A stretch of 64,000 nt of DNA from the IMG/VR virus record IMGVR_UViG_2778261035_000005; one strand, 5' to 3'. This document shows positions 1 through 56,644 of this stretch, one piece after another. The position numbers and the translations under genes were made by a program. This DNA is from a virus (taxonomy: Duplodnaviria; Heunggongvirae; Uroviricota; Caudoviricetes). The first letter of the stretch is position 1. Each line of letters begins with the position of its first letter. The notes beneath the pieces were generated by a model. The model was not told the DNA's origin. It worked only from the letters and a program-made list of their open reading frames with translations, and ran no database searches.

Positions 1-110
1 ATCTTTTTACAAAGATAAAAGAATCAGAAGAACAGGTTGAAGTTCTGGTTCATCAAAGAGAAGTAAGTGAGCAGGCGAACAAAAAAGAAACGGTTGTCAA
101 TTTATTTTTA

Positions 111-458
111 TTGTATGAAAAAAATAAATTGTTTAAAGCTAAGGGGTTGGCTGTGTTTCTTATAGTTATAAACTTAATTATAGTTGCGACTCTCGATCTT
201 CCAGCTTGGTCATTGATTATAAGTTTTTTTATTCTCTCTTTGATTATGTTGAAAGATCAGATACTTACTATTCGTGTCTCTAAAGGATATTTTGGCACAA
301 GTGCGTATGAAGCGGTTCAATTGCTTAAATTCATCAGAGAAAATTCAGACAAATTTGACTCAGATGATAATGACGGTAGCCCACGACGGATATTGAATCC
401 GAAGGGAACAACAAAAAAATCAGACAACCTATTCGATAAAGGGTGGCAAAATGTTTGA
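111..458 (+). CDS. hypothetical membrane protein (2 predicted TM helices)
   Basis: ORF track; hydrophobic segments LAVFLIVINLIIVATL and WSLIISFFILSLIML; A+T-rich; track start is TTG, no clear SD. Confidence 0.3.
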   Translation: MYEKNKLFKAKGLAVFLIVINLIIVATLDLPAWSLIISFFILSLIMLKDQILTIRVSKGYFGTSAYEAVQLLKFIRENSDKFDSDDNDGSPRRILNPKGTTKKSDNLFDKGWQNV

Positions 459-873
459 CCTTGACGCCATCACTAAGTTCTTAAATCAGTGTTTTGATCT
501 ACTTTTGCTCAAGCAGCCTTTAAGAACTGTTTTCGGAATACTGATTGGTTTCATTATTTTTGTTTTTGTTTACACGTTTAGGTTTGCGATAGCTCAAGAT
601 TTTTATGAAATAGATGGCGTGCATTACGCTGCATGTTTCGTCATCGGTGTTTTAGTTGTTCACACAAGAACATTTTTTGACGTTATCAAGGGCACCGCAG
701 TTGATGAAGAAATAGATAGTATGATCAGAGTTATTACGAAGCAGCCACACCTATCTAACCATCAAAAAAACATAATGATTGCTGAAATACTTCAAAAAGA
801 AATTGCAGCCATAAGTCAAAAGAGATTGGATAAAGTTGCACAAGAAATAACGGAGAAAAAGACAACTGATTAA
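451..873 (+). CDS. hypothetical membrane protein
   Basis: ORF track; ATG overlaps upstream ORF end; hydrophobic segment GILIGFIIFVFVYTF; A+T-rich. Confidence 0.4.
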   Translation: MFDLDAITKFLNQCFDLLLLKQPLRTVFGILIGFIIFVFVYTFRFAIAQDFYEIDGVHYAACFVIGVLVVHTRTFFDVIKGTAVDEEIDSMIRVITKQPHLSNHQKNIMIAEILQKEIAAISQKRLDKVAQEITEKKTTD

Positions 874-881
874 TTTAATTA

Positions 882-946
882 CCTGTTTCTGTATATAAAT
901 AATAAGTAACTTATTAAATATATATACGGAAGCAGGTCTTTTAAAA
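882..946 (+). terminator. long hairpin with A+T-rich loop followed by T-run (putative intrinsic terminator)
   Basis: arms cctgtttctgtatata (882-897) and tatatacggaagcagg (921-936), then cttttaaaag; near-identical element at 48816-48878. Confidence 0.45.
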
Positions 947-1053
947 GACACCCACCAGAACAACTCCCTTCCGTTTCCACTTCCAAAAACTGCCACCAGT
1001 CGCTATCATCCGCTCATTGTGATAAGTAAGTAACTACCTACCAGGTGAGCCAC

Positions 1054-1794
1054 ATGAGCCAAATCTTTTTCGATACCATCGACAACAACCAGTACGACTT
1101 CATGACAGAGTGGAATACCGCTGTTATGGACAAGTGGGTTGCTGAAAACATTGGTTTGTCGCGCTGCAAAGACGAGGCTGAACTCTTCGAGACGAAGTGG
1201 TTTGATTACCGCGACATGCATCCTCTCATGGCCACCTGCCTTTTTACGGAGGCATACAAACGTCAGTACTCAAATATCATGCTGACGCACGGTCGCGAAC
1301 ACTTTGAAACAGCTCCGTTCACCACCGGGTTAAAACGCCTGCCTTATCAGGAGTTGTCGACTGCCAATAAAACGTCTCTATGGAAAGCACGCCAGTTTGC
1401 TGACCGCTATTGCTGCTCATACGACTACTTTATCTCCACCGTTCTTTCCGCAGCTGCACGACGGCTGTGGGACAAGCTGCCGCGCCCACAGCATTTATGG
1501 CAGCCAGAACTGATTGAGATATTTGAAGAGAAATTAGCCAGACGCGCAACAACCCGTCTGGATGACTCTCTGGTTAGCTTTAAGCATATGGGAGACATGC
1601 AGTTCAACCCGATTCAGGAAAGCTATTTTGAATGGATTCTGGAGCGTTTGCGCACCATCCCTCGCAGTAAGCGCATACGCGCAATTTTCTCCGCTATCTG
1701 GCTAATGGAAATCGTTCCAGAGCGCCTTATTTCCGCCCACTTTCCAGAAGAACTGGAAGAAGCACGGCGGTTTATTGATCCCCTATCTAATTAA
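1054..1794 (+). CDS. hypothetical protein
   Basis: ORF track 1045-1794; ATG at 1054 preceded by aggtga SD. Confidence 0.5.
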   Translation: MSQIFFDTIDNNQYDFMTEWNTAVMDKWVAENIGLSRCKDEAELFETKWFDYRDMHPLMATCLFTEAYKRQYSNIMLTHGREHFETAPFTTGLKRLPYQELSTANKTSLWKARQFADRYCCSYDYFISTVLSAAARRLWDKLPRPQHLWQPELIEIFEEKLARRATTRLDDSLVSFKHMGDMQFNPIQESYFEWILERLRTIPRSKRIRAIFSAIWLMEIVPERLISAHFPEELEEARRFIDPLSN

Positions 1795-1837
1795 CTAATA
1801 CTAGAAAACAATTTGTTTAAAAAACAAAGGAAAGCAC

Positions 1838-3178
1838 ATGACCGAACTTTGCCATACAGGACGCGGGCTGTCCGAAGAGTTTGATGAAGATTTCCAGAAC
1901 AGACTGACGGCATATTTTTGTCGTGATCACGAGTTTCTTACTCGTGCGGGAGATCTGGTTGTGCCTAGCCAATTTGCCAATGCGGCCAATGCCATATTGG
2001 TTAATATGGTTTCGGGCTATTACCGTATGTACAAGAGCGCGCCTTCTTCATCTGCGATTCTGGATATGCTTAAGCGTGCGAAACGCGATAAGACCATCCG
2101 TGAGGAACTCTTCCCGGATGTTGTTGCTGCGTTTAAGCGCATCCTTGCAGAAAAATTGTCTGATACCTCGTACATGGTTGACCAGGTATCCACATTCGCA
2201 AAAAGTGTAGCGTTTGATGATGCTCTGATTAAAGCTGCTGAACTGAAAGAGAAGGGCGACTTTCAGGGGGCGATGGCAATCATGGCCAAGGTTCAGCAGA
2301 TAGGCTCGAACGAAGCGACCGGAATCTATGACTACTACACCTCCGCAAGTGAGCGATTGAAAGCGCGTGAATATGAGGCTTCAGAGGAGTATGTGCCAAA
2401 CAGCATTACAACTGGACTCCCTCTGCTTGATAGATTGCTGTACCAAAAAGGCTGGGCAAAGCGCGAAATGGTGCTCTTCATGGGTTTTGCTAAATCCGGT
2501 AAATCGACCGCAATGGGTGAGTTTTCCATAAACGCAACGCTTGCTGGCTACAATGTTCTGTATCTCTCGCTGGAGGTTCACACCACCATTTTATCCGACC
2601 GTTTTGATGCAAGATTGTCGGAGACAGAAATGTCCAAGCTGGTGGAACGGCGCGATGAGGTTCATCGTAAGTTGGCAGAGTTGGGAGCCACGAAGGGGAT
2701 TGGTAGTTTGTGGGTGGTTGAGCGTCCGTCAGGAAGTATGTCACCGGCAGATCTGGACCGTATGCTTAACAGCATGAAAGCCAACGGCATGGTGCCTGAC
2801 ATGGTTGTTGTCGACTACGCAGATTTGATGCGTGCCAGTTATGACCTTCGTGATGATCGCGCCAACATTCGTAGTATCTACACCGATTTACGTGCTCTTT
2901 ATGACAAGCATAACGTTGCTGGAATAACGGCATCGCAGACAAACCGTGAAGGTGGCGCGTCAGAAGTTGCCACAATGATGCACGCCGCCGACAACATCGA
3001 AAAAGTACGTATTGCTGACCTGGTAATAACGATCAACAAAACCGAAGAAGAAGAAGCGAAAGGAGAGGCTCGTCTCTACTTTGCTGGTTCGCGTAACCAG
3101 CAGGGAGGGATCAGCATTCGCGTTAAACAAAACCTCGAACAAATGCGCTTCATTGAGCGAATCTTAGACGTTACCTAA
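1838..3178 (+). CDS. replicative DNA helicase, DnaB family
   Basis: Walker A GFAKSGKST, Walker B VVVDYADLM, ITASQTNREG motif; conserved aaggaaagcacATG start context. Confidence 0.8.
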   Translation: MTELCHTGRGLSEEFDEDFQNRLTAYFCRDHEFLTRAGDLVVPSQFANAANAILVNMVSGYYRMYKSAPSSSAILDMLKRAKRDKTIREELFPDVVAAFKRILAEKLSDTSYMVDQVSTFAKSVAFDDALIKAAELKEKGDFQGAMAIMAKVQQIGSNEATGIYDYYTSASERLKAREYEASEEYVPNSITTGLPLLDRLLYQKGWAKREMVLFMGFAKSGKSTAMGEFSINATLAGYNVLYLSLEVHTTILSDRFDARLSETEMSKLVERRDEVHRKLAELGATKGIGSLWVVERPSGSMSPADLDRMLNSMKANGMVPDMVVVDYADLMRASYDLRDDRANIRSIYTDLRALYDKHNVAGITASQTNREGGASEVATMMHAADNIEKVRIADLVITINKTEEEEAKGEARLYFAGSRNQQGGISIRVKQNLEQMRFIERILDVT

Positions 3179-3259
3179 AAAATAAGCGTGGAGAACACCT
3201 CCACGCTTGATTCATTGGTGAAACAACTTTTCTTTTGCCAAACCACAAAAGAAAAACAC

Positions 3260-4441
3260 ATGAGCCTTTATGTTATATCAACATTTAGGTTGGTAACAAT
3301 ATTGCCTGTTAAAAGTGGAATTATCGTGAGCGAGCTGAAAGAGTTAATTACCGAATTAGATTTTGAACAATGGTTGGACACTGAAGGTATCGTTTATCGA
3401 CGTGGAGGCGTGAGTACTCGCGGTCGTGAAGTGAATATCAAGGAGTGTCCGGTATGCGGCAGCTCCAACTGGAAGGTATATTTCAATCTGACCAGTGGCG
3501 TCGGTAAATGCTTCGCTGGTGATCATCCCGAAGAGATTCAGTTCAATAAGCTGGTCTTCCTCAAGCACTACAGCGGCAAATCACGACGACAGTTCGAGGA
3601 ATATGTGCAGAACGCCCTTCTTTCCCAGGGGTGGGCACCAAAGAAAGAAGAGCTAGTGCTTGCAAGCACAGTCGAGTTAGAGGGGCCAGTTGCACTCCCT
3701 CGTCATTACGAACTTCCTATAGATGGCCGTCTTCCAGACTATCTGGTTGAACGAAATATATCGCCTGAAATGGCAAAGTATTTTGACCTACGATACTGCG
3801 TCGAAGGTAAGCACGCCTATGTAGATCCGTATACAGATCAGGTTAAAGGACAGATATTCGATATGCGAATACTGATACCGGTTTACGATCTGGATGGGGT
3901 AATGAAGACATTTCAGGGACGAGACATTACCGGTACAGCAGAACGCCGCTACCTCTTTCCTATGCAGCTTCCAGCTTCAGGTAAGTTTCTCTACAACGGC
4001 TATAATGCAGTCGGCAAACAGACTGTAGTTGTCTGTGAGGGGGCGTTCGATGTTATGGGGGTTAAACGAGCTATTTTTGACGAAGAAACATTACGTGATT
4101 ACGTGGAACCAATAGGAACGTTCGGGATGCATCTATCTGGTAACACCACTCAGGATGCAGAAGATCAGTTAGGCGCGTTCCTGACGCTCAAGGCGCGTGG
4201 GTTACGTAATGTGATCATGATGTGGGATAGTGAAAAGCAAGCTATACGAAACACTATGGCCGCAGCCAGGCGACTGACCAGTATCGGTCTTAATGTGAAA
4301 ATTGCATGTTTGGGCGAGGAAGGACTCGACCCCGGCGATGCGACCCCGGGGCAGATTATCAAAGCCTACTATTGCGCAAAACCTTACTCACGACAGCTTG
4401 AACTTTTAAGCAAGGTAAAAGGCATAGCAGCATTAGTTTGA
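3260..4441 (+). CDS. DNA primase (zinc-ribbon + TOPRIM)
   Basis: CPVCGSSNW...GKCFAGDH zinc motif; VVVCEGAFDVMGV and MWDSEKQ TOPRIM-like; start moved to ATG 3260 after conserved gaaaaacac context. Confidence 0.7.
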   Translation: MSLYVISTFRLVTILPVKSGIIVSELKELITELDFEQWLDTEGIVYRRGGVSTRGREVNIKECPVCGSSNWKVYFNLTSGVGKCFAGDHPEEIQFNKLVFLKHYSGKSRRQFEEYVQNALLSQGWAPKKEELVLASTVELEGPVALPRHYELPIDGRLPDYLVERNISPEMAKYFDLRYCVEGKHAYVDPYTDQVKGQIFDMRILIPVYDLDGVMKTFQGRDITGTAERRYLFPMQLPASGKFLYNGYNAVGKQTVVVCEGAFDVMGVKRAIFDEETLRDYVEPIGTFGMHLSGNTTQDAEDQLGAFLTLKARGLRNVIMMWDSEKQAIRNTMAAARRLTSIGLNVKIACLGEEGLDPGDATPGQIIKAYYCAKPYSRQLELLSKVKGIAALV

Positions 4442-5578
4442 ACCAGTATTAGTCACGTACACATTGACCGAAAATGATTTAACTTCTGTGTTGAAGTTGT
4501 CAGTCATTACCGCGAGGTAGGCATTCTTGGTATCTCTGAATTGCTTCAGTATGATTTGAACGTTATCGGTGCAAACAAACGAGGTAGCCAGATTGCCTCC
4601 TTTCTCTGAAAAATCCTTCAGGAAGGTGCAGTCAACTTTGCCATCATTAGCGGTGAAGGTAGCATCATCACCCTGCCAGGTAAATGTAGCGTTAACGCCC
4701 TTATCAATGGATTTAGCAATAAGTCGCTGGGTGGCGGATTTTGTTTTGGCTTTGGAAGCCGGCGCTCGATATTTGCCGCTTTCTTTCAGTTCTGCAATGT
4801 AATCACAGCCATTTTTATCTTCTTTATCACAAGCAGCCTGATAAAGCTCAGCTGCTTTTTTATAGTCTTTTTTAACCCCTTCACCATACTCATACATAAT
4901 GCCAAGATTTGTCATGGCATCGGCGTTTCCGAGTTCAGCAGCTTTTTTATACCACTTAATTGCTTCGGCATCGTTGCGTTTAACACCTAAACCGTCATCG
5001 TATAAGGTGCCTAATGCGAACATGCCATCTGAACTACCTTGATCCGCCGCTTTTTTGTAATAAGTAAAAGCTTTTTTATAACTCTTTTGTACACCTTTAC
5101 CATATTGGTAATACGCACCAAGAAGGTAGCTAGCTTTAACATACCCGGCATCAGAGGCTAGATTGAAGTATTTAATGGCGAGCGCATGATCTACTTTACC
5201 AAGCATCCCCTTTTGATAAATAGCACCAAGATTGTTATAGGCTCTACCTTCACGAGCATCTCCCGCAAGTTTGTAGTACTCAACTGCTTTATTTAAGTCT
5301 TTATCTACACCCTCGCCAAATGTGTACATAACCCCAAGTGCATAATATGCTACTTTGTCTCCCTTTTCTGCAGCGAGATCAATCCACTTCTTGGCCTCAA
5401 CTACATCCTTATCAAAACCATTGATACCATCAAAATAATTTGTCCCTAACTCACTTTGTGCTGCGGTATCCCCTGCGGTAGCGGCTTCTATCAGCGTTTG
5501 TTTATTGTCTGCGTTAACGAATCCAGAGCTAAAAAGCAAAGTTAATGCCAGCAACGATGAAGATTTTATGTATTTCAT
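4433..5578 (-). CDS. secreted Sel1-like repeat (TPR-like) protein
   Basis: signal peptide MKYIKSSSLLALTLLFSSGFVNA; repeated A..W/Y..AA..G...A...LG..Y..G.GV..D units; only minus-strand gene in its neighbourhood. Confidence 0.7.
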   Translation of the reverse strand: MKYIKSSSLLALTLLFSSGFVNADNKQTLIEAATAGDTAAQSELGTNYFDGINGFDKDVVEAKKWIDLAAEKGDKVAYYALGVMYTFGEGVDKDLNKAVEYYKLAGDAREGRAYNNLGAIYQKGMLGKVDHALAIKYFNLASDAGYVKASYLLGAYYQYGKGVQKSYKKAFTYYKKAADQGSSDGMFALGTLYDDGLGVKRNDAEAIKWYKKAAELGNADAMTNLGIMYEYGEGVKKDYKKAAELYQAACDKEDKNGCDYIAELKESGKYRAPASKAKTKSATQRLIAKSIDKGVNATFTWQGDDATFTANDGKVDCTFLKDFSEKGGNLATSFVCTDNVQIILKQFRDTKNAYLAVMTDNFNTEVKSFSVNVYVTNTGSN

Positions 5579-5811
5579 ATTTTTTGTTCTGTTGATATAG
5601 GATGAACAGTTTAGACGCGGCAAGTGTCAAGTGTGCGAAAAATGGTACTTAAATTTAGTTAATATGTCAGCTTTGTTGATTTAGTTTATGGTCGGTAAAG
5701 TTACTAGGAAACTAATAACCATAAGAAATAGTACGTCATTTAATTATTGTGGCACTGCTCGTGTTTTGATTAACTAATACCTGCGATAAATATAAATAAA
5801 GGGAAGCCAAC

Positions 5812-6225
5812 ATGAGCAAAAATAAGCTGATTTTAACAGGAGCTTTATTGTCTTTGTTTGCTTTAGTGGGGTGTAAGCCTACAGACGAGAAGGCTATTGC
5901 TCTGGGCCAACAAGCAATTGCGGATGATATGAAAGATCCCACGTCGGTGATGTTTAGGAAAGATAAGTTTGTCAGGACTGATCATGACGATGGGAGTGTG
6001 ACAGGCTTTGTGTGCGGAGAATTGAACGCCAAAAATGGCTTTGGTGCATACGTGGGCTATCACTCATATGTTGTTGAACTCGAAATGAAGCCAAAGGGCA
6101 TGTTTTCGAAAGGGGTGGTATACAAAATCCTATCGAAGTCGTTGGCACCTAATGATCCTCATGACTTACAGCGTTATAAGCAGGTCTACAGAAAGATGTG
6201 CAACAGTGAGGCTGTAGCTCATTAA
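5812..6225 (+). CDS. lipoprotein of unknown function
   Basis: signal peptide with lipobox LFALVGC; SD agggaag upstream. Confidence 0.6.
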   Translation: MSKNKLILTGALLSLFALVGCKPTDEKAIALGQQAIADDMKDPTSVMFRKDKFVRTDHDDGSVTGFVCGELNAKNGFGAYVGYHSYVVELEMKPKGMFSKGVVYKILSKSLAPNDPHDLQRYKQVYRKMCNSEAVAH

Positions 6226-6350
6226 TGGTGAATGCCGGGCAGACTATAAGCCCGGCATCTTCGTATAGGGAACTATTGCGCCTAAAATGATAAGTAGATA
6301 CATACTTAGTTTTTTGTAAGAATACTTTCATCTGTTAGCTAGGAGTTGGT

Positions 6351-7127
6351 ATGAAAGACGAAATTCAGAAATTGGCCTGTGACATCATTGATAAAACAGG
6401 TTTAGAAATCAGCGAGGGCAGTCGACTAGACATCATTGGAAAGGCCGTCAATACAGCAATGAATCATATCGCTGCTCGTATGGACGAGATCCCGCTACCA
6501 GGGTTGCCTTATCTGAAAGTTGAGTTACACGTATGGGGCGAACCTTCTTGTGCACGGCGTTCTGCATTAGTTGTTTTTATTAGCAAAGAAAACCCGCTCA
6601 GTCTTAAAGTGCAGGTTGGAGCATGGCTTGATGGCAGAGTGATCTACACAAATACCGTTTTTTGTCTTTCAAACGACGAAACTATTGAAGCGGCCATTCA
6701 AGAAGCAGTTCTAGCAATGCGCAGCAGCGGTTTGATGAAGAATAACTACGAAGAGTACTTGCGTTCGATAAGTGGTGAAAAGACATTATCTCTGAAAGCA
6801 GATTTCGTTACCCCGAAAAATCTGTTGGAAGTTTTGATTAATAAAGGGGCTAATAGTGCCGTAAATGTAATCAGAGAGAGTGAATACGCGTCTCTTTGGG
6901 ATATGTGCAAAAGCCAGTTGGATCTTGTGCATATCGTTGTTGATGCGGGGAAGGCTTGTGATGGCGTAATGGCGGAATTTGCTGGGAAGATGGTCAGGAT
7001 TGCTAACGAATTACCGATGATTAAGCAAGAGGCTAAATCATACGCCACCAATCATGTCACAGAGCTTCTTGCCCCTTATCGCTTAGAAAGCGATCAGCGC
7101 AAGATGATTAGCTGGGGAAGTTGGTAA
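6351..7127 (+). CDS. hypothetical protein
   Basis: ORF track; aggag SD before ATG. Confidence 0.5.
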   Translation: MKDEIQKLACDIIDKTGLEISEGSRLDIIGKAVNTAMNHIAARMDEIPLPGLPYLKVELHVWGEPSCARRSALVVFISKENPLSLKVQVGAWLDGRVIYTNTVFCLSNDETIEAAIQEAVLAMRSSGLMKNNYEEYLRSISGEKTLSLKADFVTPKNLLEVLINKGANSAVNVIRESEYASLWDMCKSQLDLVHIVVDAGKACDGVMAEFAGKMVRIANELPMIKQEAKSYATNHVTELLAPYRLESDQRKMISWGSW

Positions 7128-7194
7128 GCTCTCTGTGTGTCGTTTTTTACGCAAACAATGATAGGTAAGCACAAGATTATTTCTGGCGGTAATT

Positions 7195-7665
7195 GTGAAA
7201 GCTGATTTATCAAAAATCCCTTCTATTTCAGGAAATAACGGTTATTCACTTCGTTGTGAGGAAGTAAAGATAAACGGTGAGTCGGCATATTGCAGCTATT
7301 CCGTTTGCCAGCACACCATTCTTGCCTTCAAAGAAAACCGTCTTCCTCGAACTTCTTTCCAGTCGTGCGCAACCGCTATTAAAGCAGGCAAATGCAAGGC
7401 GTTAAAAATGATGGTTGAAGAGATTCGTAAAGGAGAATCTCTGTATTTCGAAGATATGACCGCACTCATTAAGGAGGTTGAAGAACGGAATAAACAAGCC
7501 AGAACTATAAAACGAAAACGTGACAGTGTAACGATTAATAGCATGGTTAAGAAGAGCGCCACATCACAAACAGCGATCACTGACGTGTATGCGGCGTTGC
7601 TTGAAGAAACAACAAAAGAAACACATGAGCAAATCGATCAACATATGGAGGCAAAACAACAATGA
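7195..7665 (+). CDS. hypothetical protein
   Basis: ORF track (GTG start); end overlaps ligase start. Confidence 0.4.
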   Translation: MKADLSKIPSISGNNGYSLRCEEVKINGESAYCSYSVCQHTILAFKENRLPRTSFQSCATAIKAGKCKALKMMVEEIRKGESLYFEDMTALIKEVEERNKQARTIKRKRDSVTINSMVKKSATSQTAITDVYAALLEETTKETHEQIDQHMEAKQQ

Positions 7666-8984
7666 AAAAGTTGATCGCACTTAAGCATAAGCTGGACGAA
7701 ATGAAAGCTATGGGAACCAATGCAAAAAAAGAGGCATTGGCCAACATGGATGACTTCGAGCAAAGCATGGTTTCATTGATGCTCAACCCTTTCATCCGTT
7801 TTGGGGTAAAGAAATACAAAGTGGTAGAGCCGCTTAGTGAGTCCGTCCCAAGTGACGAAAAAGCCATTGATATACTGAATAAGCTGGCCTCTCGCGAGCT
7901 GACGGGGAACGCAGCAATAGCTGCTGTTGAGTCTATCGTGGCGTCAATGTGCGCCGATGGGCAGGACGTCTTCCGTCGTTTCCTCTTAAAAGATCCGAAA
8001 GCTGGCGTTGGGATTAGCCTATGCAACAAGGTTTTTGAAAATCCCATTCCGAAATTCGAGGTGCAGCTGGCGTCACCGTATAAAGAAAAAGGCGACAAAT
8101 ACCCCTTCAAGCCAAACCCTAAAGCAAAATGGCCGATGATTGGCAGCCTTAAGCTCGATGGTTTGCGAGTAATTTGCGAGGTTATTGTTGACGAGGAAGA
8201 GGTTAACTTCCTTTCTCGTACTGGTAATCCAATCACGTCTCTCGATCACTTAAAGCCAGCCATGCTCGAATTAGGCAAACTTTCAGGCCACAAACACATC
8301 TTCTTCGATGGTGAAGGAACAGCCGGTTCATTTAACCAGTCCGTATCTGCATTGCGCAAAAAGAACGTGCAGGCAATTGGCGCTATTTATCATGTTTTCG
8401 ACTTCTTCCTACCGGAATGGCGAGCACAGGCTAAATCCAAAGAGTATGCAAAGACAGGTATGAAGCTGAAAGAGCGCCTGGCTATGCTGGTGGCGTTGTT
8501 CAAAAACGATCGCAGTGAAGGCTACACACAAGACATTCACCTGCATCCGTTCTACATCATCCATAGCCACGAAGACTTCATCGAACGCTTCATGAAACGC
8601 CTGGACGATAACGAAGAAGGGGAGATGGGCAAAGATCCGAACTCTGTTTACGAGTTTAAACGTACCCGCAGCTGGTGGAAGTTAAAAGACGAAGACTCAG
8701 AAGATGGTGAAATTATCGACTTTGAGCCGGGCGACCCGGACTCTGGTTTTGCCAACACGCTTGGAAAAATTGTTATTCGCCTTGAAAACGGTGTGATTGT
8801 TCGTGCGAGCGGCATTAAGCATAAATATCTGGACGAGATCTGGAACAACAAAGAGAAGTACCGTGGTCGTATTGTCGAGGTTCATTGTCACGAGAAAACG
8901 CCGGATGGCAGCTTACGCCACCCACGACTGAAATGGCCGCGTTGCTTACGCGATACAGAAGATCGAATCGGAGATAAAGAATGA
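7662..8984 (+). CDS. ATP-dependent DNA ligase
   Basis: nucleotidyltransferase motif I KLDGLR (SLKLDGLRVICEV); replication-gene context. Confidence 0.7.
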   Translation: MKKLIALKHKLDEMKAMGTNAKKEALANMDDFEQSMVSLMLNPFIRFGVKKYKVVEPLSESVPSDEKAIDILNKLASRELTGNAAIAAVESIVASMCADGQDVFRRFLLKDPKAGVGISLCNKVFENPIPKFEVQLASPYKEKGDKYPFKPNPKAKWPMIGSLKLDGLRVICEVIVDEEEVNFLSRTGNPITSLDHLKPAMLELGKLSGHKHIFFDGEGTAGSFNQSVSALRKKNVQAIGAIYHVFDFFLPEWRAQAKSKEYAKTGMKLKERLAMLVALFKNDRSEGYTQDIHLHPFYIIHSHEDFIERFMKRLDDNEEGEMGKDPNSVYEFKRTRSWWKLKDEDSEDGEIIDFEPGDPDSGFANTLGKIVIRLENGVIVRASGIKHKYLDEIWNNKEKYRGRIVEVHCHEKTPDGSLRHPRLKWPRCLRDTEDRIGDKE

Positions 8985-9160
8985 TGCTCGGCTGGATGAT
9001 TGCATTTTTAGCAGTTGGTTTTTTCATCGGTATTGTGGTGATGTCCAGTTGCATTAATGACTACATTAAAAACGGTGTTATAGAAAGACGCGGTCGCATT
9101 TATCGCATTGTAGAAATAACCAACACCGTGAAGGAGATTAAGGATGATCGTATTAAGTAA
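8981..9160 (+). CDS. small membrane protein (59 aa, not in ORF track)
   Basis: ATG overlaps ligase stop (ATGA); hydrophobic MIAFLAVGFFIGIVVM; paralogous to ORF at 9356. Confidence 0.4.
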   Translation: MMLGWMIAFLAVGFFIGIVVMSSCINDYIKNGVIERRGRIYRIVEITNTVKEIKDDRIK

Positions 9161-9359
9161 ACGGGAGAAGGAAACACTTTATGAAATCAGTAAGTGGCCG
9201 GAGTTCCCTGAGTACTGGAAGCCTAAAACGCGGGCTAAGTTAGAGCGGTTAGGGTTGGTTGCAAACGTTTCTGAAACGAGGGGGTCGGCCAACTACCAGT
9301 TAACTGATAAAGGGAAAGTATTGCTACAGCAATTAGTAGAATCAGGAGCGTTAAAATGA
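9144..9359 (+). CDS. hypothetical protein
   Basis: ORF track; aaggag SD 9 nt upstream. Confidence 0.45.
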   Translation: MIVLSKREKETLYEISKWPEFPEYWKPKTRAKLERLGLVANVSETRGSANYQLTDKGKVLLQQLVESGALK

Positions 9360-9508
9360 TTCCATACATCTCATTAGCTTTTATGGGTGGCTTTCTTATC
9401 GGCTTCGGCATCTGTCGTGATTTAATTAAGCAGGAACTTAAAACCAAAACACTGTGCATCGGAAAGCGTGTGTATCGGGTAGTTCATGAAACAAAGGTTA
9501 GAAAATGA
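9356..9508 (+). CDS. small membrane protein (50 aa, not in ORF track)
   Basis: ATGA overlap with upstream stop; MIPYISLAFMGGFLIGFGIC; start codon lies inside repeated AATGATTCCATAC element. Confidence 0.4.
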   Translation: MIPYISLAFMGGFLIGFGICRDLIKQELKTKTLCIGKRVYRVVHETKVRK

Positions 9509-9795
9509 GCAATTTAACTTCTTGGGACTGGTGGTTGGCCACCTATTTCTTAGCGGCCGGAGTCGCATTCGCCTTTTACGTAGGTCAGTTAGTCGTAAAA
9601 CTGTTGCTGATTAAATTTGCTAGTCATAAACGTATCGATGATGGTCTGTGGCGTCTTGGCACCCTGGTGGAAACTCGCTACGGGCAACTTAAGGAGAACG
9701 AAACCATTACTATCCAAGCGAAACGATTCACTGCCACCATCACAAGAACACCTAGTCGTAGAGTGGCCTTGATCAAAAAAGTCGCAACCGAATAA
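9505..9795 (+). CDS. hypothetical membrane protein
   Basis: ORF track; ATGA overlap with upstream ORF; hydrophobic N-terminus. Confidence 0.45.
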   Translation: MSNLTSWDWWLATYFLAAGVAFAFYVGQLVVKLLLIKFASHKRIDDGLWRLGTLVETRYGQLKENETITIQAKRFTATITRTPSRRVALIKKVATE

Positions 9796-10009
9796 AAACA
9801 CAATGATAAGTATTTACTTACTTATCTTTTATGTATAAGATGACTTTGTTTTCGTTGAGACGCGACTGTTTGAACTTAAATACAAGTGCAAACGAAGAAG
9901 TCTATCTGGCAGTAGCCTAATAAGCCAAACACCAGCGAGGTCAGTTTCCAGCCTCGTTACCGAAATGGGACACACTGAGCGAGTGTGATTGCAGAACGCA
10001 GGAGGGAAC

Positions 10010-10147
10010 ATGAATGTTCCCTCCGATGAAGTAACAGAATGGGCGGTCAGTATATTTTCAACTCATATACGACTCCCGGATTCTTATCCAATGACCGCCC
10101 ATCCTGTTACGTCATTTTGTTCAATTATGTCGTTTATACTGGGTTAA
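10010..10147 (+). CDS. possible small ORF (45 aa) with SD and start codon inside a perfect palindrome
   Basis: aggaggg SD then ATG at 10010; palindrome ggagggaacat-ga-atgttccctcc 10001-10024; may be RNA structure instead. Confidence 0.2.
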   Translation: MNVPSDEVTEWAVSIFSTHIRLPDSYPMTAHPVTSFCSIMSFILG

Positions 10148-10574
10148 AAAGCGGCGACGTAGCCCGGCTGGTATGGTTAGCCAGCACACAACGTTGAGGC
10201 CATTACATTTTTATCAATTCTAAGGTTCTATTCACAGAGATACCGGCGAGCGTTGATATGTAACATGTTGGGCAAACATTCAATCGGAGTAGTGGCCTCA
10301 ACGTTGTGAAGACAGGATAGTTGTGTAGGTTTAACCACTGTTGCCATTGGTGCCTGTTTTCACAACAAATGATTCCATACATCACATTGTATAAATTACA
10401 AAGTAAGTGCAGTCCTCAGAAACATCATCTACTTAAAGATTTTGCCTTCTACTATTGAGCGAAGTCGAAAGCGTCTGGCACTAACGAAAAGTGCAAGTAG
10501 CGGTGCGTTTCCTGGCAGAAACTAAACCGTCGCGATTGGCACTGTTGAGTAATAAATACTGGCAGTGCCGAATT

Positions 10575-10649
10575 GATGGTGTAGCTCAGCGGTAGAGCAG
10601 TTGGCTGTTAACCAACTGGTCGGTGGTTCGAATCCACCCACCATCGCCA
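10575..10649 (+). tRNA. tRNA-Asn (anticodon GTT)
   Basis: cloverleaf by hand: acceptor GATGGTG/CACCATC, D-stem GCTC/GAGC, anticodon loop CTGTTAA, T-loop TTCGAAT, CCA end; differs from host-type tRNA-Asn. Confidence 0.85.
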
Positions 10650-10651
10650 AT

Positions 10652-10727
10652 GCCGGTTTAGCTCAGTTGGTAGAGCACCTGCCTTGTAAGCAGGATGTCA
10701 GCGGTTCGAATCCGTTAACCGGCACCA
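10652..10727 (+). tRNA. tRNA-Thr (anticodon TGT)
   Basis: acceptor GCCGGTT/AACCGGC, anticodon stem CCTGC/GCAGG, loop CTTGTAA, T-loop TTCGAAT, CCA. Confidence 0.85.
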
Positions 10728-10940
10728 ACACAACAGGAAAGAGCATTGAGAACCGCCGAGACTGCCCTGTTTGAAGCGTAAGTCCGTGCAAACGTCATAC
10801 AGTGCTCTTTTCGTTGTGGTGAATGCGGCTAAGCGCACGCGGGGAAATGGTTATATTGATCCTTTGTGATGACTATTGGCTCCGTCCACGGTGGATAACC
10901 AGCCAAAGGACACCGGGAAGCACCCGGCACCACAACAATT

Positions 10941-11027
10941 GGAGAGTAGGGAGCATGGTGCTCAAGCGGTCTTGAAAACCGTCCCATTGCGCAAGCGATG
11001 ATGGTTCGATTCCATTACTCTCCGCCA
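10941..11027 (+). tRNA. tRNA-Ser (anticodon TGA), class II with long variable arm
   Basis: acceptor GGAGAGT/ACTCTCC, anticodon loop CTTGAAA, long variable arm, T-loop TTCGATT, CCA. Confidence 0.75.
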
Positions 11028-11182
11028 GACACAGCGTTGAGCGGTTTGGCCTTTTAATCACCCAGATTAAGACTCCGCTAACATAAACCAGACCGCTCAA
11101 CGCTGTGATAGACAATTACGGCAGACGTTCTTAACCATAGCTTGCTAACATCCTAGCAACACTTTTTTTCAGCGCAAAATTC

Positions 11183-11206
11183 AAAGGGGCTTCGGCCCCT
11201 TTTTGG
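11183..11206. terminator. bidirectional intrinsic terminator
   Basis: aaaggggc-ttcg-gcccc-tttttgg hairpin flanked by A-run and T-run; between tRNA cluster and convergent minus-strand gene. Confidence 0.7.
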
Positions 11207-11211
11207 CTGGG

Positions 11212-12492
11212 TTAATTAAAACCGAATGAATCAAGTTCTGCTTTTAATTTATCGACCATTTTTTCAACTTCAACCACAATTTCGCCAATCACCTTTTCTT
11301 TGTGTTGATTAGAGCTAAGTTCAAAATAGGCGTTATATAACGCATAACGAGACAGAAAATTTCTAATCTCATTAGCGGGTCTAATGGTGTAGCCATCGGT
11401 TAACACGATATCGGTCTGTCTAGAGTGCTTCTCGTTGAGTTTTATTAGCCGCTTTATCTGTTTTTCATCCTTGAGCACTATCACTTTGTTAGCTGCAATT
11501 TCAAGCTCCCAGCCGACAAAATAACGCAGCGTAGAATTTAATTTAGCCACTTCCTCGGCTGCAATTTCCATTTTCAGCTCAATGTAGTTTCGCATATGCA
11601 TAGGTAGGTCATTAAATCTTTGCAGCAAATGTTGTCGGCAGGGGTTGTTGTAAGACCAAAGAACTGCAAACGTAAGCCTATGATAACAGCTTATCGCATT
11701 GGTATTACAGGCCGAATCACCAACAATCATGCGATCAACATAAAACTCTACGTCTTTTTGGTATTCTTTATTGAATATATCAGCGGCATAGGTGTCCAGG
11801 TAATGAACTTTAGATATTGCATCTTCAAAGAAAAGTTCATTTTCGAAGAAGTTGTATTTGTTCAGGAGACGATAAAGTTTCTTTGCGTCGTAGGTTTTGC
11901 TATTGTCGACATTAAGACCAAAAATAGCAATCAGCAGACTTACTTTTGGACTAATGCTGTTGCGCAGTTGTTCTATGTAAGATCTCTTTTCACTATCCGC
12001 AGATGACGGCAGATAGAAGTCTTTATCTACATAATTTAGAATTAAAATAATGTGGTTAACATACTTAATATAAACAGGGTTTTTTGTTGCATAGTAATAA
12101 ACGCCCTTGACGACTTTTATATTCAATTTCAAATTGTACTGACTATCATCCAGTAAGGTTTTGTTAACATCCTCAAGTAATTTATTATGCTGTTCAAGTA
12201 ATATGCCGTACCATTCCTTAAAAGAAGATTTTTTCATTTCAAGAAGCGAAGCCGCCGTCAGCCTGGTCGCTCTCATTGCCGCCTTTGCACTATGCCTTGC
12301 CTCATAAGCGGCCCATGCTGTGGCTAAAAAGGCAAGTGAAGTAGCAAGCGTACCTATAACCTCTACGTTTTCCTTGACGGTATCCCAGAAAATAATCATC
12401 ACTGTCCCAAGTATGAGGATTAACAAAACAGGCATTTTATCAGTGTCTTTGGTTAATTTTGAAACTGAATGATACCTAATCGACCATACCAT
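11212..12492 (-). CDS. hypothetical membrane-anchored protein, A+T-rich (candidate exclusion/defence cargo)
   Basis: ORF track; two N-terminal hydrophobic helices then ~350 aa soluble domain; strongly A+T-rich versus neighbours; alternative ATG at 12435. Confidence 0.55.
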   Translation of the reverse strand: MVWSIRYHSVSKLTKDTDKMPVLLILILGTVMIIFWDTVKENVEVIGTLATSLAFLATAWAAYEARHSAKAAMRATRLTAASLLEMKKSSFKEWYGILLEQHNKLLEDVNKTLLDDSQYNLKLNIKVVKGVYYYATKNPVYIKYVNHIILILNYVDKDFYLPSSADSEKRSYIEQLRNSISPKVSLLIAIFGLNVDNSKTYDAKKLYRLLNKYNFFENELFFEDAISKVHYLDTYAADIFNKEYQKDVEFYVDRMIVGDSACNTNAISCYHRLTFAVLWSYNNPCRQHLLQRFNDLPMHMRNYIELKMEIAAEEVAKLNSTLRYFVGWELEIAANKVIVLKDEKQIKRLIKLNEKHSRQTDIVLTDGYTIRPANEIRNFLSRYALYNAYFELSSNQHKEKVIGEIVVEVEKMVDKLKAELDSFGFN

Positions 12493-13012: not shown

Positions 13013-13050
13013 GTAAAAGCCACATCTTTGTACATATAGTACATATAACA

Positions 13051-15967: not shown

Positions 15968-16065
15968 TCCCTCTTCTACCTGCGCGAATGGCTTAGTTCC
16001 CTGTTCGCGCAGTGCTACATTAAACACACTAGTAAATAATTTGTTTTCATAACAAAGGATTAGCC

Positions 16066-18174: not shown

Positions 18175-18269
18175 TTAGAATAGCCTTAATGATAAGTAAT
18201 CACTTACGATATTTGATGGTATATTTATATAAGAAGTTGAAAGCTCATTAGAAAACAAAGGAAAAACGC

Positions 18270-19505: not shown

Positions 19506-19507
19506 TC

Positions 19508-29572: not shown

Positions 29573-29597
29573 AGGCGTCCAGTTGGACGCCTTTTTT
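29573..29597 (+). terminator. intrinsic terminator
   Basis: aggcgtcc-agtt-ggacgcct-tttttat. Confidence 0.75.
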
Positions 29598-29647
29598 ATC
29601 GCAATTATCTTATTAAGAAAACAATTTGTTTAAAAGGATAAGAAAAC

Positions 29648-40994: not shown

Positions 40995-41101
40995 CATATG
41001 GTGGGGGATATCCCCACCTTCTCTTTGATTTGTAAGCCTTGTTTAAACACATAAGATAACAACTTGTTTAAACGCACCAAAAAAAGAAAAAGGAAAAACA
41101 C

Positions 41102-42244
41102 ATGTCATATTCAACGTTCCGTTTGGGTGCTAATGATGCAACCAAAGAGCCTATGTTCCTCGGACAATCTGTCAACGTGGCACGTTACGATCAGCAAAAA
41201 TACCGTGATTTTGAAAAGTTGATTGAACGTCAATTGTCTTTCTTCTGGCGGCCGGAAGAAGTTGATATTTCGAGCGATCGTATCGACTTCAACACGAAGC
41301 TGCGGGACCACGAACGTCACATTTTTCTGAGCAATCTCCGTTATCAAACGTTACTCGATTCAGTTCAGGGACGTAGCCCAAATGCAACGCTGCTGCCGCT
41401 TATCTCTATTCCTGAACTGGAAACGTGGGTTGAAACGTGGTCTTTCTCTGAGACTATCCATAGCCGTAGCTACACCCACATTATTCGTGGCATGGTGGAC
41501 GATCCGAGTATTGTTTTTGACGGTATTGTTACGGATGAAGAAATCATCAACCGAGCGATCAGTATCTCTGCTGAATATGACAGGCTTTATGGGATGACAT
41601 GCGAGCGCCAGTCGTTAGGTGAGAAGGAGTTTGAACGTCTGTACGTAAATGAATATGGCTGGGAGCCATACCCTTTGCATCGTCAGCTTTTCCGCACGTT
41701 GGTGTCCATTAATGCGCTTGAGGCGATCCGTTTCTATGTAAGTTTTGCATGTACGTTTGCCTTTGGCGAACGGAAGTTGCTTGAGGGTAACACCAAAATT
41801 ATGCGCTTTATTGCCCGTGATGAAGCTCTGCATTGCGAAGGAACTGAACGCATGATCCGCTTCATGCGTACCGGTCGCGAAGGTTTATTGTGGAAAGAGA
41901 TTGCTGCTGATGAAGAAAACGTCATTTACGACACCATGAAATCAGTCGCCGAACAAGAAATGAACTGGGCAGACTATCTCTTCAAAGACGGTTCGATGAT
42001 TGGTTTAAACGCGGATATTCTGAAGACCTATGTAAAATACCGCACCAATCTGGCTATGAATCGTCTTGGCCTGAAGGCTTTATTTCCAGAAGTTACCACA
42101 GATCCGCTGGTCTGGATGAACAAGTGGTTGTTAACCGACACACTGCAAATTGCACCACAAGAGGCAGAGCAAAGCACATATCTGGTAGGTCAGATCGATT
42201 CTACCGTGGATAAGGCTTCTCTAAGCCAGTTTGCAGACCTGTAA
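41102..42244 (+). CDS. nrdB: ribonucleoside-diphosphate reductase beta subunit
   Basis: [41 protein letters not shown]-terminal SQFADL tail. Confidence 0.95.
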
Positions 42245-51232: not shown

Positions 51233-51325
51233 CGGTTGTTAGTGCATATGCATTGACCGTCTTTGCGTAAGCAATTTATGTAACCAGAAAACAATTTGTT
51301 TTGACAAATAGCAAAAGGAAAACAC

Positions 51326-51938: not shown

Positions 51939-52048
51939 GTTGACCGAAATAGAGAGTTTGCACCTTTACGTTTAGCTTGCTCCCCTTTTATGCCACATCA
52001 CAATAAAGCCAATAAGAAAACAACTTGTTTAAGCATTAGGAAAAACAC

Positions 52049-56506: not shown

Positions 56507-56644
56507 GCGCTACAAATCCTTCTGCATGAATAAATAAAGGCCATAACTTATGGCCTTAAATAAATTGTTTTCTACCTTTTCTTATTTGTGAAAATAAACC
56601 AGCACTTGGTAGTGCTTATGTAACAGCAAAGAAGAGAAAAACAC

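Follow-up and report, generated by a model that had tools for sequence, protein, structure and literature searches.

The plasmid-prophage P1 carries 22 C1 operators (PMC8546580), copies of one short operator scattered at many promoters through which a single protein holds lytic genes off, including the dnaB analogue. Plasmids of the IncP-1 group (RK2/RP4) likewise use short palindromic operators at many promoters of one replicon, through which KorA and KorB control replication, partition and further functions together. OB, the operator of KorB (TTTAGCGGCTAAA), is a 13-bp palindrome with a 6-1-6 layout, and the KorA operator OA (GTTTAGCTAAAC) overlaps the -10 element (PMC11790492). At the RNA level, the translational operators of T4 RegA and Salmonella FljA consist of a short A/U-rich leader sequence through which one protein acts on many mRNAs. 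At lac O1/O3 and gal OE/OI, a palindrome 10-15 bp after the transcription start is combined with an upstream copy at an integral number of helical turns, the classical arrangement for looping repression. T4-type phages reportedly carry PeSL cassettes (a name attributed to Arbiol et al. in 2010), units of a stem-loop and an early promoter that flank small variable-region genes and provide them with their own promoters and with homology for modular shuffling.

We analysed a 64,000-nt stretch of phage DNA (the window; IMG/VR record IMGVR_UViG_2778261035_000005). It belongs to an SSU5-like phage-plasmid and is ~96% identical to Escherichia phage Cyrano. Such elements include pHCM2 of S. Typhi, pLF82/Cyrano and many plasmids of Klebsiella, Enterobacter and E. 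coli, and the helicase of the window alone has matches in 930 PLSDB records. Some carry resistance genes, and next to nothing has been described about how their genes are regulated or how they choose between lysis and lysogeny. We find that the palindrome AAACAA-N-TTGTTT (13 bases, AAACAAnTTGTTT), for which our literature search found no describing publication, is the best-conserved element of a promoter-leader cassette of which SSU5-like phage-plasmids of Enterobacteriaceae carry ~20 paralogous copies. The evidence favours recognition of the motif as double-stranded DNA over an RNA element. It most likely reflects operator-type control of a familiar kind that had not previously been described for these phage-plasmids.

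A preliminary description of the window had placed the palindrome before the starts at 1838, 16066, 29648, 41102, 51326 and 52049, and we found it at all six, 12-33 nt upstream. A scan for AAACAANTTGTTT with at most one mismatch returned 8 sites, all of them intergenic, against 0.44 expected from 100 dinucleotide shuffles; the largest count in a shuffle was 2 and none of the 100 reached 8 (see table). Two of these sites were absent from the preliminary list: 122-134 (before the ORF at 153), in a region without counterpart in Cyrano, and 56558-56570 (before the ATG at 56645). The sequence around the helicase start (1798-1840) reads ctagaAAACAATTTGTTTaaaaaacaaaggaaagcacATG. Downstream of the palindromes in the window lie genes for a DnaB-like helicase, a cobT-like protein, NrdB, a DUF7238 protein and a TerB-like protein, as well as genes of no assigned function. 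Complete genomes of relatives have further copies before parA, before the small terminase gene and in a cluster of small genes of the early region, so its description as the mark of a replication-gene set was too narrow.

Table. Motif copies, promoter-like elements and start contexts in the window.
Feature	Position	Strand	Context
AAACAANTTGTTT site starts, scan with at most 1 mismatch	122, 1806, 16034, 29619, 41057, 51289, 52018, 56558	+	all reported on this strand
Palindrome copy AAATAAATTGTTT, 1 mismatch	122..134	+	intergenic; 19 nt before GTG at 153
Weak -10-like hexamer TCTAAT	1786..1791	+	14 nt before helicase palindrome; just before stop of upstream ORF (1792-1794)
Class A copy AGA-AAACAATTTGTTT-AA	1803..1820	+	before ATG 1838 of DnaB-like helicase
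Degenerate copy AAACAACTTTTCT, 2 mismatches	3221..3233	+	3' of terminator-like hairpin, 5' of primase ATG 3260
Extended -10 TGcTACATT	16013..16021	+	12 nt before palindrome of cobT-like gene
Class A copy AAATAATTTGTTT	16034..16046	+	before ATG 16066 of cobT-like gene
Left half-site only, AGAAAACAA	18250..18258	+	fused to SD of cobS-like gene, ATG 18270
Intrinsic-terminator-like hairpin aggcgtccagttggacgcc + T-run	29573..29598	+	directly upstream of cassette at 29619
Class A copy AGA-AAACAATTTGTTT-AA	29616..29633	+	before ATG 29648, DUF7238 protein
Class A-like copy AGA-TAACAACTTGTTT-AA	41054..41071	+	nrdA-nrdB gap, ATG 41102
Start context AAGGAAAAACACATG, example	41090..41104	+	ATG 41102
Class A copy AGA-AAACAATTTGTTT-TG	51286..51303	+	before ATG 51326; TerB-like, P1 TciA-like
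CCTTTT box, 9 nt, -10-like CACAAT	51984..52004	+	belongs to cassette at 52018
Class A copy AGA-AAACAACTTGTTT-AA	52015..52032	+	13 nt after CACAAT, before ATG 52049
Class B module: hairpin aaggccataacttatggcctt, palindrome AAATAAATTGTTT (56558-56570), tcta-CCTTTT (56575-56580), 9 nt, -10 GAAAAT (56590-56595)	56535..56595	+	
Other AAGGAAAAACACATG copies, by ATG	3260, 18270, 19686, 25054, 30129, 34062, 51326, 52049, 55422, 56645	+	
Start-context variants, by ATG	1838, 28522	+	spacer one base shorter

The palindrome is shared with related elements. Cyrano, SSU5 and K. oxytoca pCAV1015-111 each carry ~20 copies, whose central position accepts any base (T, A, C or G), and the set is present in pCAV1015-111 even though its helicase is only 69% identical. 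In the same genome AAACAA is the commonest arm among all 6-1-6 palindromes, with 12 occurrences against at most 2 for any other. Across lineages, the palindrome is retained at orthologous genes (helicase, parA, terminase and the gene at 52049) whose intergenic flanks have diverged. At the helicase, TAGAAAACAAnTTGTTTAA is almost invariant among 80 IMG/VR relatives with diverged flanks and a central T, A or C, and the palindrome also persists at this gene in pCAV1015-111. The cobT-like site has the SSU5 orthologue AAACAAATTGTTT, the site at 52018 corresponds to SSU5 81751 and K. oxytoca 63407, and the module at 56535..56595 recurs at Cyrano 85824 and SSU5 85608. The nrdB copy is conserved in Cyrano and SSU5 and absent before nrdB in K. 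oxytoca. A pattern scan of IMG/VR for the motif was uninformative, returning mostly single chance matches in unrelated contigs. A relative from Acinetobacter shares the gene order but not the palindrome, and has a different one fused to TATAAT at ~17 promoters; we conclude that members of this supergroup generally embed palindromes specific to their lineage in promoters.

The copies fall into two arrangements relative to a predicted promoter. In class A, a gCCTT(T/A)T box is followed after 8-9 nt by a -10 hexamer (GATAAT, often as TGnGATAAT), by 13 nt (aACaCCAAnAAGA) and by AAACAAnTTGTTT; a short A-rich leader with an SD and the ATG come next, and a terminator hairpin often stands at the 5' end of the cassette. 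The box, 8-9 nt upstream of the -10, replaces a TTGACA-like -35, and a strict scan of positions 1-20000, which covers the first three sites of the window, found no canonical pair, with a TTGACA-like hexamer 16-18 nt before the -10, at motif sites. The hexamer is close to the TATAAT of sigma-70 promoters, in which the second base is A and the sixth T. The highest-scoring -10-like hexamer falls 12-14 nt before the palindrome at 22 of 42 class A sites, compared with ~17% at random positions, and the mean -10 score is 3.8 vs 1.5 bits. Hexamers include GATAAT, TATTAT, GAAAAT and TAAAAT, and a TG stands one base upstream at 12 of the 42 sites, within the window only at 16013. The candidates in the window (TACATT, CACAAT, TCTAAT) are weaker than those of the early region outside it, and hexamer scoring found no convincing -10 upstream of the nrdB palindrome at 41054..41071. 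Before the helicase, an alternative hexamer (TAATAC) lies 4 nt from the palindrome, and relatives have CATAAT (K. oxytoca) or TAGTAT (SSU5) 4-5 nt upstream.

The geometry of these cassettes is strict. The CCTT(T/A)T-N7-10-GATAAT-like pattern occurs on the gene strand only, and a logo of 39 unique class A sites shows conservation of the AAT of the -10, the 13-nt spacer and the palindrome, whose information content is far above that of the cassette flanks. Class A palindromes stand 13 +/- 1 nt after the -10, which places their centre at about +14 from the predicted start; a role as the -10 itself was rejected on this geometry, the -10 being 13 nt upstream. Class B copies are flipped and centred around -38, before the predicted start. 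In three lineages a class A and a class B copy are paired at a distance of 51 bp; 39 of ~55 copies are centred near +14, and class B stands without class A at window 56558 (centre about -38) and at Cyrano 97196. The module at 56535..56595 feeds the gene at 56645, with the palindrome 75 nt before its ATG. The distance from palindrome centre to start codon is by comparison loose, at 11-91 nt (median 27.5, sd ~18). The proposal that the palindrome lies where an operator or mRNA leader would be is thus borne out as far as promoter prediction goes, with the centre at about +14 and 13 nt between palindrome and -10-like hexamer. The terminator-like hairpin at 29573..29598 leaves only ~48 nt to the ATG, and any promoter there must therefore overlap the motif region.

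We consider a dispersed DNA operator for a putative dimeric regulator the best reading of these patterns, and one for which our confidence is about even. An enriched inverted repeat lies in promoter regions at a constant position and in either orientation, and its conservation is symmetric with a tolerated centre. Recognition as DNA is favoured because copies occur flipped at -38, spacing is fixed to the -10, no hairpin is shared and variants change single arms without compensation. Where transcription starts, that a protein binds, whether it represses or activates and which protein it is are all matters of inference. Host RNA polymerase would start ~7 nt after the -10, and a dimeric regulator, probably encoded by the element, would bind the palindrome at +14 and block open-complex formation, promoter escape or early elongation. 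Where a promoter also carries a flipped copy near -38, exactly 51 bp upstream, the two sites may be bound cooperatively or joined by a loop around the core promoter. Occupancy of the sites would hold many transcription units off in the plasmid-prophage state, or stop them together in lytic growth. The arrangement of a near-start palindrome and a second copy 51 bp upstream is that of lac and gal, but these are single operons with known repressors, whereas here the geometry is repeated in many cassettes whose starts are predicted. Coordinated transcriptional or translational control, as first suggested, is supported in that the motif is a conserved, non-random signal shared by many transcription units; how control is split between the two levels is a matter of interpretation.

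Several features complicate a simple operator. Class A flanks are consistently asymmetric, with AGA on one side and AA or AAGG on the other, and the left arm and leader are conserved even in the absence of the right arm, as the half-site at 18250..18258 indicates; the same is seen at several promoters of K. oxytoca and of SSU5. A function of the leader, or common descent of the cassettes, may thus account for some of this conservation. Only 7 bp separate the centres of the two arms, a short distance for an HTH dimer of the classical type; this objection would fall away if the 19-bp AGAAAACAAnTTGTTTTCT were the actual site. Compared with P1, where monomeric C1 binds a 17-bp asymmetric site (ATTGCTCTAATAAATTT), the SSU5-like site, of 13 bp or possibly 19 bp, is palindromic around a free centre, fixed in position after the -10 and recognised by a putative binder. 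The IncP-1 parallel extends to the two ParB-family proteins that SSU5-like elements encode and to the copy of the motif before parA. However, KorB is a CTP-dependent sliding clamp that acts from variable and even distant positions, whereas the SSU5-like motif has a strict position (+14 or -38), and lysogen values of 5.0 and 9.5, against a median of 9.8, show no expression of Cyrano's ParB-like genes.

Published gene-level counts from the LF82 lysogen transcriptome place the Cyrano genes behind the motif at background (median 9.8; PMC9928086 supplement), with values of 7.1 (CYRAN_1), 7.8 (CYRAN_47), 5.7 (CYRAN_58), 12.9 (CYRAN_70), 7.0 (CYRAN_85), 7.1 (CYRAN_87), 7.5 (CYRAN_101), 12.8 (CYRAN_105), 12.2 (CYRAN_106) and 6.7 (CYRAN_110). 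Several of these silent genes have consensus-like extended -10 elements. The silence would also fit promoters needing an activator, and in an alternative that we regard as unlikely the palindrome and the CCTTTT box would be positive signals, recognised by an activator or by RNA polymerase that the phage has modified. Class B, around -38, would then be a class II activator-like site in place of a -35, and class A an initial-transcribed or discriminator signal, unless one protein activates from -38 and represses from +14 in an early-to-middle switch. The cassettes do lack a usable -35, class B occupies the position where activators of -35-less promoters bind, some promoters have class B only, and the geometry relative to the -10 is strict. 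Against this, the predominant position near +14 is unusual for activation, and many cassettes carry TGnGATAAT, an extended -10 that normally works without a -35 or an activator. The scanned proteins included none recognisable as sigma-like, MotA-like or an RNA polymerase.

We hold it slightly less probable still that the motif works as RNA, with transcribed AAGAAAACAAnUUGUUUAA at mRNA 5' ends bound by a protein (the FljA-like protein, host Hfq through the A-rich ARN-like run and the U-run, or ribosomal protein S1) that would set translation or mRNA stability of the gene set. Class A copies are indeed predicted to form part of the 5' leader, with 11-91 nt to the start codon, the left arm and the AAnAAGA run before it are A-rich and stay conserved at sites that lack the right arm, and the nrdB copy sits in an intercistronic gap without a detectable promoter. 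SSU5-like elements also have a gene for a full-length FljA-like protein, matched by Pfam Flag1_repress at E 1e-80 and faintly, at its C-terminus, by an Hfq-like entry, and Salmonella FljA acts on the fliC mRNA leader. However, the flipped class B copies stand upstream of the predicted start and therefore outside the regulated mRNA, the distance to SD or AUG is not fixed, whereas RegA sites overlap the AUG, and a free centre between symmetric arms is typical of a dimer on duplex DNA. Folding revealed no common hairpin across sites (z -2.3 to +0.7, minimum free energies -0.6 to -6 kcal/mol, structures varying by site), and Rfam has no family at any palindrome site. When sites were anchored on the left half, right-arm complementarity was bimodal (6/6 in 22 sites, 5/6 in 20), and the variants at intergenic sites judged plausible were all uncompensated single-arm changes; a pair-count test on palindrome-matched sites was dropped because such selection makes the test circular. 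A hairpin or riboswitch-like element was rejected on the lack of a shared fold, covariation and Rfam match. The FljA-like gene itself lies outside the window, reaches only ~2x background in the lysogen, and its product may simply act on host flagellin. These results argue against the emphasis that had been placed on a small RNA-binding protein, given the flipped copies and the spacing fixed to the -10 and not to the AUG.

That the cassettes are merely alike by duplication or recombination of mobile modules, the palindrome being a recombination or terminator-tail sequence without a regulator of its own, seems very doubtful: BLAST does place the cassette at 5-6 sites per genome, in SSU5-like phages only, with a ~60-nt stretch alike between copies, many of them flank small genes of a variable region and several class B copies follow hairpins directly, so that the T-rich right arm could be a terminator tail, but the palindrome is far richer in information than its flanks and is kept at the helicase, parA, terminase and 52049 genes across lineages with diverged intergenic flanks, and arms that are fixed while the central base varies freely indicate selection on symmetry and not simple copying. 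The palindrome as terminator or terminator tail was rejected, as it is A/T-only with a 1-nt centre, unlike the G+C-rich hairpin and adjoining T-run of an intrinsic terminator, and the hairpins before some copies (29573-29598, 56535-56557) are elements distinct from it. The PeSL cassettes are similar in repeating stem-loop and promoter units beside small genes of variable regions, but they belong to virulent myoviruses and have no operator palindrome, whereas the core of the SSU5-like cassette is a palindrome in a temperate phage-plasmid.

Returning to a DNA operator, scans of candidate proteins against Pfam, PHROG and PDB gave nothing decisive for the cognate protein. The HTH protein encoded at 15117-15503, a homologue of the Cyrano 'putative repressor', is an unlikely binder because no copy of the palindrome precedes its own gene and SSU5 has the motif without the gene; a perfect GGTAAGTGCTTACC lies upstream of this gene. 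The UmuD-like protein (61174-61563) has an S24 peptidase domain only and no DNA-binding domain. The homologue of CYRAN_43 (13197-13751), by far the highest-expressed gene in the lysogen, has no Pfam or PDB similarity, and the two ParB-family proteins are candidates without a link to the motif. The CYRAN_117-like protein looks ribbon-helix-helix-like by eye, with no Pfam match and a poor AF2 model (pLDDT 53.6), and is only a lead; like the HTH protein, it has no link to the motif. A class A-like site inside the start of CYRAN_117 was taken as chance because neither SSU5 nor K. oxytoca retains it.

A second dispersed palindrome, GTAAGnnCTTAC, was also found in these elements. The two motifs alternate even between neighbouring genes of one pathway, with nrdA carrying the second and nrdB the first, and cobT the first and cobS the second. 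It is conceivable, if improbable, that SSU5-like phage-plasmids run their whole programme on a two-palindrome code, in which AAACAAnTTGTTT (at +14/-38 of extended -10 cassettes) and (ATAG)GTAAGnnCTTAC(CTAT) would define two interleaved regulons. One putative small protein, other than a classical repressor of the CI type, would then repress from +14 and activate from -38, yielding both an early-to-middle switch and prophage silencing. A motif with ~20 sites at a defined cassette position provides a regulon map, a bait for the regulator and a basis for reporters of how ~100 kb of phage genes are kept silent during plasmid replication. Its value is practical and not conceptual, because the expected mechanism is a conventional operator.

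Finally, the preliminary description had named the palindrome together with a fixed start context. Both are indeed enriched: AAGGAAAAACACATG, allowing up to two mismatches, has 11 matches in the window compared with 0.28 expected, all 11 on the + strand and ending in the ATG of ORFs of 91-1172 aa. The estimate of at least 12 genes with this context agrees with our count of 13-14 distinct gene starts when a 1-nt change in spacer length is allowed. The start context is nevertheless a feature separate from the palindrome, because genes without a palindrome (3260, 19686, 25054, 30129, 34062 and 55422) also have it.

The 13-base palindrome AAACAA-N-TTGTTT (the original site, upstream of the DnaB-like helicase gene, reads ctagaAAACAATTTGTTTaaaaaacaaaggaaagcacATG) is a conserved, functional-looking element, and the finding is real. 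We counted eight copies of AAACAANTTGTTT (≤1 mismatch) in the window versus 0.44 expected from shuffles, all eight of them intergenic. The recurrence claimed in the preliminary description is therefore borne out, and two copies that it had overlooked, at 122 and 56558, can be added. The start context, a separate conserved sequence ending in the gene ATG (AAGGAAAAACACATG, ≤2 mismatches), also recurs as claimed: 11 copies are present versus 0.28 expected, all on the + strand and each closing with the start codon ATG of a real ORF, and 13-14 genes carry it when one base of spacer variation is allowed. CAC is the triplet before the ATG at 13-14 window genes, and CACATG is found at 24 places on the + strand versus 6 on the - strand. 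The A-run and CAC spacer of the start context resemble the left arm of the palindrome (GAAAAACAC vs GAAAACAA). The CAC triplet may reflect common ancestry of the promoter-leader unit or a translation signal.

Over its first 8 kb, the window shares 95-96% identity with Escherichia phage Cyrano (pLF82) and ~80% with Salmonella phage SSU5. Cyrano 31155-92137 is collinear with the whole window, bar a few swapped modules. This makes the window that half of an SSU5-like phage-plasmid which serves replication and nucleotide metabolism, with almost all genes on the + strand. Tandem tRNA genes at 10575-10646 and 10652-10724 (Rfam tRNA, 75.5 and 76.5 bits) match Cyrano's annotated tRNA cluster.

We scanned three complete genomes, those of Cyrano, SSU5 and K. 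oxytoca plasmid pCAV1015-111, the last more distant with a helicase at 69% identity, and found ~20 copies (≤1 mismatch) in each. In the K. oxytoca plasmid, no other 6-1-6 palindrome arm comes close to AAACAA in number (12 vs at most 2). The palindrome occupies orthologous places in all three lineages, before the helicase gene, parA, the small terminase gene and the 52049-type and 29648-type genes. In 80 IMG/VR relatives, TAGAAAACAAnTTGTTTAA ahead of the helicase gene is almost invariant (n = T, A or C, the central base being free), with intergenic flanks that vary by lineage. Many small genes of the early-looking region beyond the window's end are also preceded by the palindrome, and the genes concerned are therefore not the replication set originally proposed. 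Just upstream of the small terminase gene, which lies outside the window, Cyrano (49-100) and SSU5 (49-99) have two copies 25 bp apart and the K. oxytoca plasmid a single one (83418-83430); these lie near the genome end, ahead of a G+C-rich hairpin and T-run. Late or packaging genes may be controlled from here.

Alignment of the sites on the palindrome showed it to be one component of a longer repeated promoter-leader unit, or cassette. Class A (39 unique sites, four genomes) begins with a gCCTT(T/A)T box; after 8-9 nt comes a -10 hexamer (GATAAT, TATTAT or GAAAAT, often as TGnGATAAT), and then 13 nt (aACaCCAAnAAGA), AAACAAnTTGTTT and aa...SD...ATG. The best -10-like hexamer falls 12-14 nt before the palindrome at 22 of 42 sites, versus ~17% at random positions, with a mean score of 3.8 bits versus 1.5 bits and a TG extension at 12 of the 42; the CCTT(T/A)T-N-GATAAT pattern occurs on the gene strand only. 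As transcription is predicted to start ~7 nt after the -10, the palindrome would be centered near +14. Class B (~14 sites) often reads hairpin, gCCTT, palindrome, tCTnCCTTTT, 9 nt, and GAAAAT or GATAAT, with the palindrome flipped relative to class A and centered near -38 from the predicted start. Class A and B copies are paired around one promoter, exactly 51 bp apart, in Cyrano (93120/93171), SSU5 (88325/88376) and the K. oxytoca plasmid (66906/66957). The -10 candidates within the window are weaker than those outside, and none was found for the nrdB copy. Immediately upstream of the cobT-like promoter (15980-16012) is a hairpin with a 9-bp stem (ctgcgcgaa...ttcgcgcag); the equivalent place in SSU5 has a 12-bp stem of other sequence (ctgtacgaacag...ctgttcgtacag), and thus the structure is kept and the sequence is not.

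Positions in the window of both palindromes, -10 candidates and gene starts preceded by CAC
Feature	Position	Detail
Palindrome (≤1 mismatch to AAACAANTTGTTT)	122	
Palindrome	1806	class A
Palindrome	16034	class A
Palindrome	29619	class A
Palindrome	41057	class A
Palindrome	51289	class A
Palindrome	52018	class A
Palindrome	56558	class B (sole copy)
-10 candidate	1786	TCTAAT
-10 candidate	16013	TGcTACATT
-10 candidate	51999	CACAAT
CAC gene starts	1838, 3260, 19686, 25054, 28522, 30129, 34062, 41102, 51326, 52049, 55422, 56645	
Second palindrome	15536-15547	
Second palindrome	18196-18207	before cobS
Second palindrome	28474-28485	before gene 28522
Second palindrome	38618-38629	before nrdA
Second palindrome	48172-48183	before Dam-like gene
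Second palindrome	50386-50397	before gene 50531
Second palindrome	55364-55375	before gene 55422

The reading that fits best, and that we hold about evenly probable, is that the palindrome is a dispersed DNA operator, still putative, inside this cassette. In the transcriptome of the LF82 lysogen (normalized counts per Cyrano gene, median 9.8), many genes behind a palindrome are at background: CYRAN_1 (7.1), CYRAN_47 (7.8), CYRAN_58 (5.7), CYRAN_70 (12.9), CYRAN_85 (7.0), CYRAN_87 (7.1), CYRAN_101 (7.5), CYRAN_105 (12.8), CYRAN_106 (12.2) and CYRAN_110 (6.7) (PMC9928086, supplementary file 2). The helicase gene has a count of 21, and the parA operon, another unit with a copy, is moderately expressed at 50-89 (PMC9928086). 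Several of the promoters at background have consensus-like extended -10 elements. Such elements normally fire without an activator, and the background counts thus argue for, but do not prove, repression of these genes in the lysogen. A promoter scan found no usable -35 at the sites checked. That the palindrome is instead a positive promoter or activator element is unlikely.

The palindrome could also act as RNA, in the transcribed leader, a reading that we consider improbable. Its flanks are consistently asymmetric, some promoters, such as that at 18250 before the cobS-like gene, retain the A-rich left arm and leader without the right arm, and the nrdB copy lacks its own promoter, so the leader may have some role. 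Against this, five results favor an element recognized as duplex DNA and acting on transcription. Class B copies precede the predicted start and face the other way. The distance to the -10 is constant, but that to the start codon varies over 11-91 nt (sd about 18). The six leaders named initially share no common hairpin (MFE -0.6 to -6 kcal/mol, z -2.3 to +0.7). Among sites picked on their left half only, right-arm complementarity was 6/6 positions in 22 sites, 5/6 in 20 and at random levels in the remainder, and arm variants in plausible intergenic sites were all uncompensated single-arm changes. Finally, Rfam gave no match at palindrome sites. That the palindrome is a mere by-product of cassette spread is very doubtful.

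Among known systems, the closest functional analogues of such an operator include the 22 dispersed C1 operators of the P1 phage-plasmid, which differ in being asymmetric 17-mers (PMC8546580), and the KorA/KorB regulon of IncP plasmids, whose KorB operator OB (TTTAGCGGCTAAA) shares the 13-bp 6-1-6 form (PMC11790492). The +14/-38 geometry resembles lac- and gal-type operator pairs. The repeated unit is also similar to the PeSL cassettes of T4-type phages, which are repeated hairpin and promoter units. These likenesses place the palindrome in no protein-defined family. Our literature search found no account containing any motif string, nor one of SSU5-group promoters or operators. The main use of the palindrome is as a way into the regulation, so far unstudied, of a phage-plasmid group that is widespread in the clinic.

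Cassette matches are limited to SSU5-like phages, at 5-6 places per genome, which favors a regulator encoded by the element itself. The HTH protein at 15117-15503 (- strand; weak HTH_19 match, PHROG 'transcriptional regulator') is a homologue of the lysogen-expressed 'putative repressor' of Cyrano. It is an unlikely binder of the palindrome: its own upstream region has no copy, and SSU5 retains the palindrome without the gene. SSU5 (42525-42761 vs window 14019-15503) lacks the entire integrase and HTH regulator module, including the CYRAN_43-like gene; relatives from E. coli, K. oxytoca and Acinetobacter have this module upstream of cobT. Its absence may account for the isolation of SSU5 as a plaque-forming phage. 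The CYRAN_43 homologue in this module (13197-13751, - strand, 184 aa, PHROG 28788, function not annotated) has no Pfam or PDB similarity. CYRAN_43 is by a wide margin the top-expressed Cyrano gene in the lysogen, at about 7084 versus the median of 9.8 (PMC9928086). Candidates outside the window are a FljA-family protein, two ParB-like proteins and the conserved, lysogen-expressed 92-aa CYRAN_117, which is ribbon-helix-helix-like by eye (AF2 model pLDDT only 53.6) and has no Pfam match. The FljA-family protein is full-length (Pfam Flag1_repress, E 1e-80) in Cyrano (CYRAN_114, L003:780-1301) and SSU5 (SSU5_121, L204:46897-47343). FljA is the post-transcriptional repressor of phase-1 flagellin, and this homologue may act on host flagellin or phage leaders.

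The A. baumannii plasmid pORAB01-1 (CP015484.1; helicase 37% identical) has the gene order of the window, with common neighborhoods at primase, cobT, cobS, SbcD-like and nrdB genes. We found no AAACAAnTTGTTT cassettes in its positions 1-50000. A different palindrome, ttATT-AGTAAGCGCTTACT-ATAAT, in which a GTAAG..CTTAC core is joined to a perfect -10, has ~17 copies per 50 kb there, all intergenic. Lineage-specific promoter-embedded palindromes are thus general in the supergroup, and the Acinetobacter one, lying upstream of the -10, could not act as RNA. Its core prompted a search that yielded a second palindrome, (ATAG)GTAAGnnCTTAC(CTAT), of up to 20 bp, with 10 copies in the window (≤1 mismatch; 1.26 expected), 12 in Cyrano, 17 in SSU5, where it also precedes portal, tail, tail-fibre and holin genes, and 15 in K. 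oxytoca. It probably marks a separate regulon, and adjacent genes alternate between the two palindromes (nrdA/nrdB, cobT/cobS). At 15536, a perfect copy is next to where the gene for the HTH regulator starts. Regulators at this conserved position are homologous in E. coli, K. oxytoca and Acinetobacter (44% and 31% identity), and the second palindrome is just upstream in the first two and degenerate (3 mismatches) in Acinetobacter. It is therefore a better candidate operator of that repressor than the AAACAA palindrome; possibly it is such an operator, or a P1-late-promoter-like element. In the gap that separates the second palindrome from the nrdA start codon, a conserved hairpin (gggccactatatttagtggccc, 38640-38672) runs into a T-rich stretch and resembles a terminator or attenuator. 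SSU5 and K. oxytoca retain this hairpin, and its loop contains the best -10-like hexamer, TATATT.
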